Shown here in pieces: positions 6,134 to 14,314 of a DNA stretch of 51,543 nt; position 1 is the stretch's first letter, and each line of letters opens with the position of its first letter. The notes under the pieces are model-generated. The model ran no database searches and was not told the origin of the DNA. It worked only from the letters and a program-made list of their open reading frames with translations. Source of the stretch: a virus; the IMG/VR virus record IMGVR_UViG_3300025881_000006, positions 143,324 to 194,866 of that record; one strand, 5' to 3'. The translations under genes and the position numbers were made by a program.

Positions 6134-6147
6134 CAAACCTACATTAC
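6134..6147 (+). promoter_or_regulatory. Candidate phage early-promoter motif copy 1 (caaacctacattac)
   Basis: Variant of the YAGACCTAYATCA motif found at three other intergenic sites. Confidence 0.5.
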
Positions 6148-6193: not shown

Positions 6194-6703
6194 ATGCTTA
6201 CTTCAAATACTTTAATCACTACCGCGCTTATGGCTAGAGTTAGCCAATACTCTTCATCTGTAAAACGTTTACATGCGCTACTGCAAGACGTTAACAGTAA
6301 CGAAGAGATAGACATGTATTATAATAACTTTATTATCACGTCACAAGTCCCTCCTGCACTCTTAGAGACATGCATGGATTGGGTAGCTAGTGTAAATGAA
6401 TTATCGCCAGATAGATTACGAATGTTAGCTGTTATTAATCTGATTATCAATACCATGTCCAAGTTAAACTTACTAGACGAACATTTCGTTGAGGAAGGTG
6501 CGGCATTCTCTAGAGACATTAGTAAATTAGATTTTACTAAGTTTGAGTATGTGTTTGAAAGTATTACTGAAGATAACTGGGACGACAAGAACATTACCCC
6601 ACAGGAGTTAACTGTGGTTTACGAATATGCTCCGCTATTGGCAGAGTGTTACAGCATTCTAATTGAAAGGGTGCGCAAAGATGATGCCAGACAACTCAAT
6701 TAG
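6194..6703 (+). CDS. Hypothetical protein
   Basis: ORF track 6152-6703; ATG 6194 preferred because SD aagga precedes it. Confidence 0.55.
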   Translation: MLTSNTLITTALMARVSQYSSSVKRLHALLQDVNSNEEIDMYYNNFIITSQVPPALLETCMDWVASVNELSPDRLRMLAVINLIINTMSKLNLLDEHFVEEGAAFSRDISKLDFTKFEYVFESITEDNWDDKNITPQELTVVYEYAPLLAECYSILIERVRKDDARQLN

Positions 6704-6712
6704 GGGTACGTT

Positions 6713-7537
6713 ATGAATCGTGTAAGTAAAGATCGTTTGTATAAGAAAGTGATGTTCAACCTGTACGCATTTAGAGTGTTTCGCATTGCGTTTATAGGCG
6801 TAGTGTTATACGGTATACATATGGGATTAAATGCTCAGGAGATACCCCGCTCATTCTCCACGTCCGTTAAGTGGATGATAGAGGATGTATACAAAGATAA
6901 CCATAAGTCGTTCTACTGCGGCTGTGCCTTTGATGATAAACAACTCACAGGCACTAGTTGTGGGTATATACCAAAAGACGCATACACGTCTAGCGGTAGT
7001 GTTAATACCAGAGCCTTTAGTATTGAAGGGGAGCACGTAGTCCCTGTTTCTCGATTAGCTACTAACTTAATGTGTTGGGGAGATGAACGAAAGGACATAG
7101 AGGCTTGTTATACAGGTTCTGGTTCTTTACTCTCTGGCAGAGCATGTTGCGCTAGGGTAAATGATGATTACCTTTATGCTCAGAATGATTTAGTTAATCT
7201 AGTACCTGCAATAGGACAAGTCAATAACCAACGCAGTGATAAACTCTTTGGGGAAGTGACAGGTGAACCTAGGGACTTTGGTATGTGTGATGTAGAAATT
7301 ACAGACACCATCATAGAACCTGATGAACCTATCCGTGGTGACATAGCCAGAATTCATTTCTATATGGTTGAAACTTACGGACCTGCCCTAGGTATAGGCA
7401 TAGAAGATTTTCCAATGGACGTTCTACGGTACTGGGATTTAAAAGACCCTGTTAGTGCTGAAGAAATAGAGCGTAATAAACGAATCTGCACCCTGCAAGG
7501 TAAAGGTAATCGCTACGTTGGAACGTGCGATAACTAG
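6713..7537 (+). CDS. endA: Endonuclease I (EndA/Dns family), exported or membrane-anchored
   Basis: FYCGC, EGEHVVP, DLVNLVPAIGQVNNQRS, RGDIARIHFYM, DPVSAEEIERN..QG.GN motifs; N-terminal hydrophobic segment. Confidence 0.9.
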   Translation: MNRVSKDRLYKKVMFNLYAFRVFRIAFIGVVLYGIHMGLNAQEIPRSFSTSVKWMIEDVYKDNHKSFYCGCAFDDKQLTGTSCGYIPKDAYTSSGSVNTRAFSIEGEHVVPVSRLATNLMCWGDERKDIEACYTGSGSLLSGRACCARVNDDYLYAQNDLVNLVPAIGQVNNQRSDKLFGEVTGEPRDFGMCDVEITDTIIEPDEPIRGDIARIHFYMVETYGPALGIGIEDFPMDVLRYWDLKDPVSAEEIERNKRICTLQGKGNRYVGTCDN

Positions 7538-7545
7538 TAAGGACT

Positions 7546-7587
7546 AGGGCGGGCTTTGTGCCTGCCCTGCTTTATATTCTTTTTTTT
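7546..7587 (+). terminator. Intrinsic-type terminator
   Basis: agggcgggc-tttgt-gcctgccct followed by a T-rich tail. Confidence 0.6.
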
Positions 7588-7607
7588 AGTGATATTGGAT
7601 AGTTGTG

Positions 7608-7736
7608 ATGAATAAGGTTGGGAGTAATTCTACTGGGGATGCAGTAGAAGAGATGGAAGAGTTTTGTACTAAAGGTGTACGTAGGTTGGTTATTGTGTCG
7701 GTGACTATCGCTTTATTAATTTTATGTGGATTGTAA
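7608..7736 (+). CDS. 42-aa small protein with C-terminal hydrophobic segment (not in ORF track)
   Basis: Manual translation MNKVGSNSTGDAVEEMEEFCTKGVRRLVIVSVTIALLILCGL; stop lies 1 nt before the next ATG. Confidence 0.5.
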   Translation: MNKVGSNSTGDAVEEMEEFCTKGVRRLVIVSVTIALLILCGL

Positions 7737-7737
7737 T

Positions 7738-7893
7738 ATGAGTTTAGATTTTGATGATTTTGAATTGCCCGATATGGACGAAGAAGCATTAGAGCGGACA
7801 CATGCTGCTAGAATAAAAGAGCAGGATGAAGAAGCAAAGGCTTTGACTGAAGGTGACACTGATGAGTGTGAAGGTGGGGCTTGTAAGATATAA
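7738..7893 (+). CDS. 51-aa acidic peptide with NrdA-like C-terminal redox tail (CEGGACKI); not in ORF track
   Basis: Manual translation MSLDFDDFELPDMDEEALERTHAARIKEQDEEAKALTEGDTDECEGGACKI; followed directly by a hairpin. Confidence 0.8.
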   Translation: MSLDFDDFELPDMDEEALERTHAARIKEQDEEAKALTEGDTDECEGGACKI

Positions 7894-7896
7894 TTA

Positions 7897-7928
7897 GAGG
7901 AGACCGCAATGGTCTCCTCGTTATGCGT
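7897..7928 (+). terminator. Hairpin + TATGCGT between convergent genes
   Basis: gaggagacc-gcaat-ggtctcctc, then ttatgcgtttt. Confidence 0.7.
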
Positions 7929-7931
7929 TTT

Positions 7932-8519
7932 TTATTTGTAATAATACTCTATTAACTTTACTCTGTTGACACGGCAAACCATTAGTGCTCCAGCGGCTAA
8001 TATTCCTACTAGCAATACACTAACAGAGAAGTACAGAAATAAACCACCAACGATAGCACCTGCTGCAATGTAGGTAGAGTTTAATTTAGTATCCAGAAGT
8101 GCATATTCATCATCCCCATTTACTACTTTAGATTCAACGGTGGAACCTATAGAGCGCATTAGTACATTGGTAGTGATTATCATCCAAATGCTTAAGATGA
8201 TAATAGGCTCACTGTAATAACCCAAAGCTGCTATCGTTGCTAGTGATATAGCCACAAAGTCTGTTATAATAGTCGTCTTCATACACTTCAGTGCGTGCTT
8301 AGGCGGATAACTAGACAAAGGCCCTATCGCTAATATCAATAAGGTGTAAAGTGAATAGACGTATTCTTTATAAATGGCACCATCAGCTCCCCATAACCCT
8401 ATTATAGTTTTGGTAGTGAGTACGACCGTAAGTGCACCGGCTACCATAACGCAGCACTTTGCCATCTGTTGTTGTTTCCGTTGTGGAGAAAGTGATGTAA
8501 TATCAGCTATAGTGAACAT
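7932..8519 (-). CDS. Multi-pass membrane protein, unknown function
   Basis: 195 aa with about 5-6 hydrophobic stretches. Confidence 0.65.
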   Translation of the reverse strand: MFTIADITSLSPQRKQQQMAKCCVMVAGALTVVLTTKTIIGLWGADGAIYKEYVYSLYTLLILAIGPLSSYPPKHALKCMKTTIITDFVAISLATIAALGYYSEPIIILSIWMIITTNVLMRSIGSTVESKVVNGDDEYALLDTKLNSTYIAAGAIVGGLFLYFSVSVLLVGILAAGALMVCRVNRVKLIEYYYK

Positions 8520-8627
8520 GGTATTTCCCGTTGTGTTTAATTAATCTATAGTTTACATTTAGTTATTTATTACGCACAGTACCCTTCTATGCTACGATAA
8601 AGTATATATTAAATTAGGAAGTAGTGT

Positions 8628-12283: not shown

Positions 12284-13459
12284 ATGTTAGAAAAAGAACG
12301 TTTATTGCAAAAGAAATACTATCAGTATTTAATCAATCCAACCGTGGCTAAAGACCTTATCTCGCCAATGGGGATGGATGCAATCACCGAAGCAAGTTTA
12401 ACACACCAATATCAAACGGACGAACGTCGGGTATTGTTAGATGTAGAACAGAAGCGCGCTAAACAGATACAAGCAATATTTGAAGCGGATGGCTTACAGC
12501 GCTATAGGGTCTCAGTAACCTACCATAGTGAACTACTTGCAAGAGTACTACAGGACCTATCTCAGCCTCAATATATACTAAACACTGTCTTAAACTTACC
12601 TGATACGTTTAGTGATATTATTGATTGCCTATATGACCCTAGGTTGAACTTTGTAAGGTTGGAAAGGTTAATCAGTGAGGATACACAACTAGTAAGGGAT
12701 GTATTAGGGGTTGTTAATAGTAAGGAGTTCTGGGATTCTATAGAGAGGCCATCTAAGTCCATTCGTGACCTAAAGGGTGCATTTGGTATATTAGGAGTGA
12801 AGGGACTGCAATATCTTATCCCGTTGTATATAATGAAATCTCGTATTCCATTAGAGCGTGGTTTGGGACGTAGGGGTACTGAAGATAGATTGTGGGAAGG
12901 GTTGGTAAGTACAGTAAATGCACATATCGCACTGTTAAAGGTGAGTGAGCCTGAAGATAATGTGTGTATGGAAGGAATAATGTTAGGACTATTGGAAGGT
13001 ATAGCCCCTATTGTTATTTATAAATTGTACTTTAAACACGCCTCATCTGTACGTTCTTCAGTGTTGGCAGGGTTTGAGAGGAGTGCTGAACCTAAATTGT
13101 ATGAACTAATGGTGAAGTTAAAACTGAATCTAGATGTTCTGCCCGGTATCATGAATGACCATGGACGTAAGGTTTTTAATAACCTAGGTACGTGTTTAAA
13201 ATGGACCCATACGCCAAGGATAAGAAGGGCATTTGAGGAAGAGAATGAATACCTTCCTACAACCGTGTGCTCTAAACACACCGTCATTCACCGCCGTGCG
13301 ACTCAATTCAATCATTACAATACCTTAAAGGATATTGAACTGATGACCGAAGAGGAGTCGTTATCGTACTTACAAGAAATAGGTATTGAAAGTAAAGATA
13401 CAGATTACCTTAAAACACATAACATCGACGAATTCTCATTGCACCAGTATGTAGGGTAG
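12284..13459 (+). CDS. HDOD-domain protein (long form, degenerate HD site)
   Basis: LERLISEDTQLVRDVLGVVNS..F..SIRDLKGAFGILG matches the HDOD core pattern; GLLEGI at the HD position. Confidence 0.7.
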   Translation: MLEKERLLQKKYYQYLINPTVAKDLISPMGMDAITEASLTHQYQTDERRVLLDVEQKRAKQIQAIFEADGLQRYRVSVTYHSELLARVLQDLSQPQYILNTVLNLPDTFSDIIDCLYDPRLNFVRLERLISEDTQLVRDVLGVVNSKEFWDSIERPSKSIRDLKGAFGILGVKGLQYLIPLYIMKSRIPLERGLGRRGTEDRLWEGLVSTVNAHIALLKVSEPEDNVCMEGIMLGLLEGIAPIVIYKLYFKHASSVRSSVLAGFERSAEPKLYELMVKLKLNLDVLPGIMNDHGRKVFNNLGTCLKWTHTPRIRRAFEEENEYLPTTVCSKHTVIHRRATQFNHYNTLKDIELMTEEESLSYLQEIGIESKDTDYLKTHNIDEFSLHQYVG

Positions 13460-13489: not shown

Positions 13490-14314
13490 ATGAAAGATAA
13501 TGCTTTAACGCTCATTATATTGGAAAAGCTAGATAATAACACACTAGTACTTCCAACGCTGCCAGATATAGCCCTACGGGTTAGAGAAGCAGCCGAAGAC
13601 CCAGAAGTGGACATTGCAGGACTTGCTGACATTATAACCACTGACCCCGCTCTAGCCAGCCGTATTATCACTTTTAGTAATAGTGCTATGTTAAGAGGGA
13701 CTAAAGCCGTCACGGACGTTAAGGAAGCGTGTATGCGTATGGGACTGTCTAAGGTAAAGACTATCTCTACTGCACTAGCGTTAGAACAACTTTTCGTTAC
13801 TGACAGTGAAGTAATCAAAGTGCAGATGCATAAAGCGTGGATGGATAGCGTTACCATTACCTCAAATGCAGTTGCTGCGTTTTCAGTCTGTAGAAAGATT
13901 GCTAGATTAGATATCGACACACTCTTTCTCACGGCGTTAGTACATCGCATCGGTATGATTGCAGTTATCAATGAAGCAGGTAATAGTCCTGATAAATATG
14001 GCAGTGAAGCATATTTAAAGAATACAGCTAATCGTGTTTGTCCTATCCTTGGTGGACAGATATTGAAGAAGTGGGGATTCGATCAGGATATCATTCATGC
14101 AGTAGAGAATTGGTCTACACTTAAGAACGATACACCTAGCGTAACGTATACGGACTACTTACGATTATCCGGTGCACTTATTGGTATCTTTGGTCGTAAT
14201 CAGGCTAAGGTGATTAAGTTGTGTCAAGGTAAGAAGATGTTTGAAGATATAGAAGTATTTGACGGTGATGACTTCCTAGAAGTACAGAACGCTGTATTAG
14301 CTTCCTTCCTATAA
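13490..14314 (+). CDS. Stand-alone HDOD-domain protein
   Basis: LPTLPDIALRVR, DPALASRIITFSNS, EACMRMG, ALVHRIG, GGQILKKWGF are typical HDOD motifs. Confidence 0.9.
   Translation: MKDNALTLIILEKLDNNTLVLPTLPDIALRVREAAEDPEVDIAGLADIITTDPALASRIITFSNSAMLRGTKAVTDVKEACMRMGLSKVKTISTALALEQLFVTDSEVIKVQMHKAWMDSVTITSNAVAAFSVCRKIARLDIDTLFLTALVHRIGMIAVINEAGNSPDKYGSEAYLKNTANRVCPILGGQILKKWGFDQDIIHAVENWSTLKNDTPSVTYTDYLRLSGALIGIFGRNQAKVIKLCQGKKMFEDIEVFDGDDFLEVQNAVLASFL

Follow-up and report, generated by a model that had tools for sequence, protein, structure and literature searches.

A 51-residue peptide encoded by a marine giant phage resembles both tails of class Ia ribonucleotide reductase (RNR). Near its N-terminus it carries a motif like the C-terminal tail of the beta subunit, NrdB, and at its free C-terminus it resembles the redox tail of the alpha subunit, NrdA. 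We consider it quite probable that the peptide binds the NrdA of the host. Its action there is judged with less confidence: in the leading reading, for which the balance appears even, it would dock in the cleft that takes the beta tail on host NrdA and recharge the enzyme in trans by re-reducing its active site.

Locus and neighbours of the peptide gene

The peptide is the translation of an ORF at 7738-7893 on the + strand of the window, as we call the whole 51,543-nucleotide stretch of DNA that was analysed, and it begins with ATG. An alternative in-frame start, GTG at 7726, is less probable because the relatives of the peptide start at Met. The virus record that contains the gene is 194,866 bp long and has direct terminal repeats, and its completeness was estimated at 71% by CheckV. 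Its putative major capsid protein matched 216 phage records; those listed are phiKZ-like jumbo phages, at 36% identity or less. Two adjoining HDOD-domain phage genes were also seen at 12284-13459 and 13490-14314 of the window. The best matches of the second among 32 genomes were from Alteromonadaceae (35-41% identity), a weak hint at the host.

An earlier account made from the letters of the DNA (the sequence-only reading) had described a short ORF closed by its own hairpin. The 51 residues were confirmed, and so was the hairpin: a 9-bp stem lies 3' of the peptide stop at 7897-7919 (+), with z = -4.27 and none of 200 shuffles equally stable. It is likely a terminator between convergent genes; it is absent from the list of the terminator scan, and the T run starts about 8 nt past the stem. 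The ORF had also been described as uncalled, which held for the gene track of that account only: JGI/IMG, Logan and ENA list the identical protein as a called gene, on 10 contigs. Its placement between endA and thyA, names that come from Pfam matches, is roughly right. A 43-aa candidate ORF (7605..7736, +), taken from the ORF list and without a Pfam match, separates endA from the peptide gene, and two ORFs of about 195 aa separate the peptide gene from thyA. The stop of the 43-aa ORF lies 1 nt ahead of the peptide ATG, and translational coupling of this ORF to the peptide is possible.

A promoter-like intergenic motif, ACCTACATTAC, is recurrent. It lies directly ahead of the peptide gene in two relatives (L002 and L006). 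In the window it lies at 6137..6147 (+), and a 183-aa ORF, endA and a hairpin at 7545-7569 stand between it and the peptide gene. A sigma-70 promoter scan returned 13 sites against 14.5 expected, none of them immediately 5' of the peptide ORF, and a guessed 13-nt promoter sequence returned 17 matches against 24 expected, which is chance level. A second motif, TTATGCC/TATGCCG, is enriched intergenically throughout the genome and is possibly a late-promoter element. A similar motif lies 3' of the hairpin at 7920-7927 of the window, and likewise in L002 and L006.

Conservation and distribution of the family

Close relatives of the peptide, at 73-78% identity, were found at seven loci on related phage contigs. 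Over the last 38 codons, 75-92% of the synonymous sites differ between the window and these relatives, compared with 13% of the non-synonymous sites. Synonymous sites are saturated and the amino acids are retained. This pattern indicates that the ORF is a real gene under purifying selection. A look-up of RNA runs covering 6700-8600 of the window listed none, which counts neither for nor against expression. Both ends of the peptide are conserved in the wider family. Cys44, Cys49 and the final Ile51 are invariant across 31 diverse members; the beta-like motif, in a looser form, was found in 98 of 107 tail-bearing members, whereas 1000 shuffles gave 13.3 on average and never more than 24.

Most members of the family are peptides of 45-60 residues, and its phage carriers are jumbo phages, Chaseviridae and Arno162-like phages. 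By tblastn, pattern and profile searches, the family was traced to Kp24/KpLz, SNUABM_7, Y3, JA29, Miami, PCH45, phiR1-37 (g117), Kwan, Arno162/Wc4 and Chaseviridae, and additional members are those of PhiEaH1, SNUABM_54, AH06, Ea35-70, Proteus phage 10, Moabite, SPN3US and EarlPhillipIV. A profile built from 18 members returned 113 proteins of 24-105 residues in 33 clusters at 50% identity, and 107 of these proteins end in the Cys pair plus two residues. The window peptide had no significant match in PHROG, Pfam (E up to 1) or NCBIfam. When 12 stand-alone members from cultured phages were scanned, 7 were taken by PHROG 10239, 14561, 38753 and 24014, which are of unknown function. The ESM Atlas gave unnamed clusters and one automatic name, 'putative FxLD lantipeptide', at 0.88. 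A 407-aa protein (P0014, cluster 3) was dropped as a relative since no likeness was visible, and a loose Cys-pair DNA pattern gave chance-level matches only, in five phages without a profile match, where a divergent peptide may therefore still be present.

The tail is not confined to small peptides. We read 16 of the 36 viral loci with the tail pattern as NrdA ends; 13 others encode stand-alone peptides, and in the remaining 7 a longer protein ends in the tail. The longer phage proteins are unrelated to one another and often have the beta-like motif as well; they include a 282-aa SPLA10 protein, a zinc-ribbon protein and others (L052:778-1626; L020, L025, L026, L035, L045 and L037; P0144). These endings suggest that the tail is a portable module. 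No nrdA was found in the tested records with tail-ended longer proteins. The 299-aa protein encoded upstream in PCH45 showed no likeness to the SPLA10 fusion protein (E 6.3; one pair compared). In another phage protein (L048:41-430), which belongs to PF13876 (N4 gp49/Sf6 gp66), the end runs directly from the beta-like motif into the Cx4C tail. PF13876 presumably includes anti-defence sponge proteins.

Likeness to the NrdA and NrdB tails

The alpha-like part comprises residues 41-51 (7858..7890, +), with Cys44, Cys49 and a free C-terminus. Across all six reading frames of the genome, the ending C-x-x-G-A-C-x-I-stop appears a single time, and it is absent from 20 shuffled genomes. As for bacteria, 120 loci with the tail pattern were drawn from 7 of the 64 parts of the collection; 101 were NrdA ends, 1 was a frameshifted nrdA end, 13 were stand-alone peptides and 5 were other proteins. 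When the family profile was compared with the PDB, all 15 matches were RNR tails, at weak E-values of 0.07-9. The peptide has the acidic run and the Cys pair at a free C-terminus that mark an NrdA tail. These results indicate that its C-terminus is a copy of the gammaproteobacterial NrdA tail, and the resemblance proposed earlier for this end is borne out. The tail of E. coli-type class Ia NrdA (residues 737-761; PDB 1QFN chain B, 1RLR and 7MDI) shares with it the acidic run, the Cx4C pair and the free end G-A-C-K-I. The peptide differs from NrdA in that it has no catalytic barrel and bears the beta-like motif and a helix instead. According to PMC9669993, class I enzymes with Cx4C are the minority. 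In some phage members, Cx2C or Cx3C takes the place of the Cx4C of host-type NrdA.

The beta-like motif, DFDDFEL, occupies residues 4-10 of 51 (7747..7767, +). It was compared with 52 NrdB tails from the bacterial tail-pattern loci, all of which end hydrophobic-x-x-hydrophobic-x-hydrophobic, with the consensus D[FL]xDF[ED]L. DFDDFEL fits this consensus at 7 of 7 positions. It scored 23.8 bits on the matrix of the 52 tails, above the median of the real tails (22.6), and none of the 53,077 7-mers in the longer ORFs of the phage scored as high. With the strict matrix, only 62 of the 107 tail-bearing members exceeded the 99.9th percentile of the background. The sequence-only reading had regarded the beta-like half as the weaker one; by these measures, it is stronger than was feared. 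Passages of PMC11447812 describe residues 364-375 of the E. coli NrdB tail bound to alpha. The motif of the peptide is internal, near the N-terminus, and thus differs from a true beta tail in having no free C-terminal carboxylate; the peptide also lacks the ferritin domain and the radical-transfer tyrosine of NrdB.

The distance between the two parts varies within narrow limits. In 93 of the 98 motif-bearing members, 27-34 residues separate the beta-like motif from the first Cys. AlphaFold2 predicted a helical spacer at residues 15-40 of the window peptide (7780..7857, +), with a mean pLDDT of 63 and disordered ends.

RNR genes in carrier phages

No nrdA, nrdB, nrdD, thioredoxin or glutaredoxin gene was found in the genome of the window. 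A tblastn search of this genome for a remnant of nrdA found none; the best match (E 0.009) contains a stop, lies over an HDOD gene and looks like chance. The suggestion that the upstream DNA is a decayed nrdA is therefore not borne out, and the question of whether the nrdA of this genome lacks its terminal Cx4C falls away because no such gene was found in the record. The survey was extended to 39 virus records with the tail outside NrdA (the genome of the window plus 11, 19 and 8 others), some of which are fragments or near relatives and 7 of which have the tail on a longer protein. None of the 39 has nrdA, which leaves the idea of a missing tail of a split phage NrdA without its partner. A split RNR large subunit, either NrdJa/NrdJb-like or a phage nrdA, was rejected, as no truncated catalytic subunit was present in these records. 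Five carriers, SA91KD, GJ1, PCH45, AH06 and Ea35-70, which represent three lineages, have nrdB without nrdA, and in each the nrdB has an intact host-type tail.

We also compared a panel of 15 phages, relatives picked by capsid search, one of which was a carrier already known. Eight had the peptide without nrdA, three had nrdAB without the peptide, and four had neither. Thus none of the 8 carriers had nrdA, compared with 3 of the 7 phages without the peptide; the Fisher test gave p = 0.077, and the comparison is confounded by host. With this p value and this confounding, mutual exclusion of the peptide and nrdA is suggestive only.

Copies of the peptide gene in bacteria

The peptide gene is single-copy and chromosomal in 45 of 45 genomes of the free-living Rheinheimera/Alishewanella genus, and it was present in 13 of 201 genomes sampled from the family of that genus. 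The bacterial copies sit among housekeeping-type genes. We checked the RNR of 10 bacterial carriers, and all 10 had full tails on both NrdA and NrdB. A tail-less NrdA in Rheinheimera/Alishewanella is ruled out in these 10, and the peptide is therefore an addition to an intact enzyme.

A conserved upstream -10-like box, either TGCTACACT-like or CTATACT, was found at 14 of 22 bacterial copies; it resembles sigma-S promoters. In one bacterial lineage (L086, L095, L260, L261, L263 and L264), the peptide gene lies directly ahead of a gene for a protein of about 503 aa, presumably catalase-like from its sequence. The upstream box and this neighbour may reflect expression of the bacterial copies in stationary phase or under stress.

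Co-folding of the peptide with NrdA

Since the HDOD matches hint at Alteromonadaceae, Alteromonas NrdA was chosen as the partner for co-folding. The peptide with tail-less Alteromonas NrdA gave 0.37, compared with 0.00 for the best control, which is weak support for the docking on NrdA that the sequence-only reading had proposed; the model reports no interface. Contacts agreed by at least 53%, and the partner had a pLDDT of 57 or more. Of 157 solved pairs, 116 reached the mark, as did 2 of 215 mismatched pairs; however, only 18 of the 157 solved pairs, but both mismatches, reached it at 0.60 or under. The pass may come from memorised solved complexes of alpha with the beta tail.

Discussion

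The phage has no RNR gene of its own and its peptide matches both tails; therefore, the peptide likely plugs into the RNR of the host. Passages of PMC11903788 describe how the tails work in the E. coli enzyme. The C-terminus of beta tethers beta to a cleft on alpha, and the alpha tail moves between the active site and thioredoxin; binding of the alpha tail and binding of substrate exclude each other. In the trapped complex, density for the beta tail was seen on one side only, and re-reduction was confined to the side unable to do radical transfer. From this one-sided density and segregated re-reduction, as given in those passages, we infer that the cleft left free would be the docking site of the peptide. 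DFDDFEL would bind the beta-tail cleft of the alpha protomer not engaged in radical transfer, and the spacer of about 30 residues would bring Cys44 and Cys49 to the oxidised active site of the same protomer, where re-reduction would take place. Host thioredoxin or glutaredoxin would then re-reduce the peptide. As a result, the dNTP output of the host would rise during infection without a phage nrdA.

Whether the net effect of the peptide on host RNR is stimulation is, in our estimate, evenly poised. The carriers with nrdB only would supply extra beta for host alpha, which fits boosting and not blocking, and gene context leans to an activator over an inhibitor or decoy. Three things make us place stimulation ahead of inhibition: these nrdB-only carriers, the invariance of the Cys pair and the presence of a copy in every genome of the bacterial genus. 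However, host NrdA carries a tail of its own, and it is not evident why it should need another. Synthetic beta-tail peptides are RNR inhibitors, and in E. coli the free peptides compete with beta and thereby inhibit RNR, which also speaks against a recharger.

The strongest alternative is a two-site inhibitor or dormancy factor, in which the motif displaces beta from the cleft and the Cys tail occupies or cross-links the active site. We regard this mode of action as rather unlikely, and equally so the purposes that go with it, namely that phages keep dNTP synthesis in the host low, for instance to counter defences triggered by dNTPs, and that bacteria park RNR in stationary phase. The anatomy of the peptide and the co-fold model would serve this reading equally well, and yeast Sml1 is a precedent. 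However, an inhibitor of alpha would waste the host-type nrdB of the five carriers that lack nrdA, and the invariant Cys pair would be superfluous for blocking. The proximity of endA, and the promoter-like box and catalase-like neighbour of the bacterial copies, are consistent with inhibition. So are the mutual exclusion of tail and substrate in the passages of PMC11903788 and, according to a review, the activation of the DRT9 defence by phage NrdAB expression (PMC13434031). Against this, a 195-kb phage with thyA and without RNR needs dNTPs.

It is improbable that the peptide addresses the readers of the tails instead. These would be thioredoxin or glutaredoxin, with the peptide as a redox shuttle or as a decoy, or else a sensor of a defence system or a protease that recognises the C-terminus of NrdA. 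This reading leaves the NrdB-like motif and the narrow range of spacer lengths unexplained; the phage has no thioredoxin or glutaredoxin, and no obvious client for a shuttle was found. It would accommodate the variable cysteine spacing and the tail on unrelated phage proteins, some of which have no clear beta-like motif. In PDB 1QFN, presumably a glutaredoxin complex, the family profile also hits the chain that is an NrdA peptide (E 0.37). A peptide that is the cut-off tail of a phage nrdA which was split or has decayed, or a remnant without function, would account for the tail likeness alone. This reading is very hard to credit in a genome with direct terminal repeats (CheckV 71%) and no nrdA, nrdB or nrdD, given that the only tblastn candidate (E 0.009) is apparently chance, that amino acids are kept at saturated synonymous sites and that bacterial carriers retain a tailed NrdA; it would require a tail-less nrdA in some part of the genome that this record lacks.

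Recharging of host NrdA by the docked peptide, the reading we prefer, may have a wider meaning. The peptide could be a free-standing third component of class Ia RNR, one that fills the vacant cleft of alpha2beta2 and recharges the enzyme in trans; we hold this to be slightly less probable than not. It is with similar reserve, a shade below an even balance, that we suggest that many phages use the peptide instead of a reductase of their own and that it belongs to the core genes of one bacterial genus.

We compared the peptide with known systems. In split class II RNR, NrdJb supplies reducing cysteines in trans. Passages of PMC9669993 describe NrdJb as a separate chain with the C-terminal part of the large subunit, and the peptide is likewise a separate chain of this kind. 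NrdJb is a folded protein with an IscU-like domain and a zinc finger that completes a truncated partner, whereas the peptide has one helix, disordered ends, no Pfam match and neither of these domains. It also has no truncated partner, and its likely target is the intact class Ia enzyme of another genome. The yeast proteins Sml1, Spd1, Dif1 and Hug1 are small, largely disordered RNR regulators, of which Sml1 attaches to the large subunit. All four are eukaryotic, serve as inhibitors or localisation factors and are not known to carry a redox cysteine pair. As for sequence homology to Sml1, Dif1 or Spd1, no Pfam family matched the peptide at E up to 1. No known family appears to fit: split RNR failed, and the likeness to Sml1 is functional at most.

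The peptide family is undescribed in the literature searched, which was mostly without subscription papers. Few enzymes have been studied as thoroughly as RNR, but no account was found there of a microprotein, from bacteria or phages, that regulates RNR by copying the tails of both subunits. If the peptide stimulates RNR, it would show the dNTP source of large phages without nrdA, explain the nrdB-only phages and offer a natural tool for studying the coordination of re-reduction with subunit exchange. If it is a third RNR component, the re-reduction half-cycle would become directly testable. If it inhibits, it would be the prokaryotic equivalent of Sml1, and RNR inhibitors could be developed from it as a natural lead. 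Phages in culture that have a member include those of E. coli (GJ1, ST32), Serratia (PCH45) and Salmonella (SPN3US); therefore, functional tests are within reach.

The bacterial loci gave some further observations on the tail. In Psychrosphaera algicola (L104, near 2560-2630), the nrdA tail is out of frame with the body of the gene, owing to an assembly error or a frameshift. A glutaredoxin-domain protein (L116:2142-2630) terminates in a C-x-x-G-A-C-K-I tail, and a similar protein end with this tail was seen in Candidatus Peregrinibacteria (L178). In Achromobacter (L132 and L137), a protein of about 370 aa without a Pfam match ends in an NrdA-like acidic Cx4C tail.
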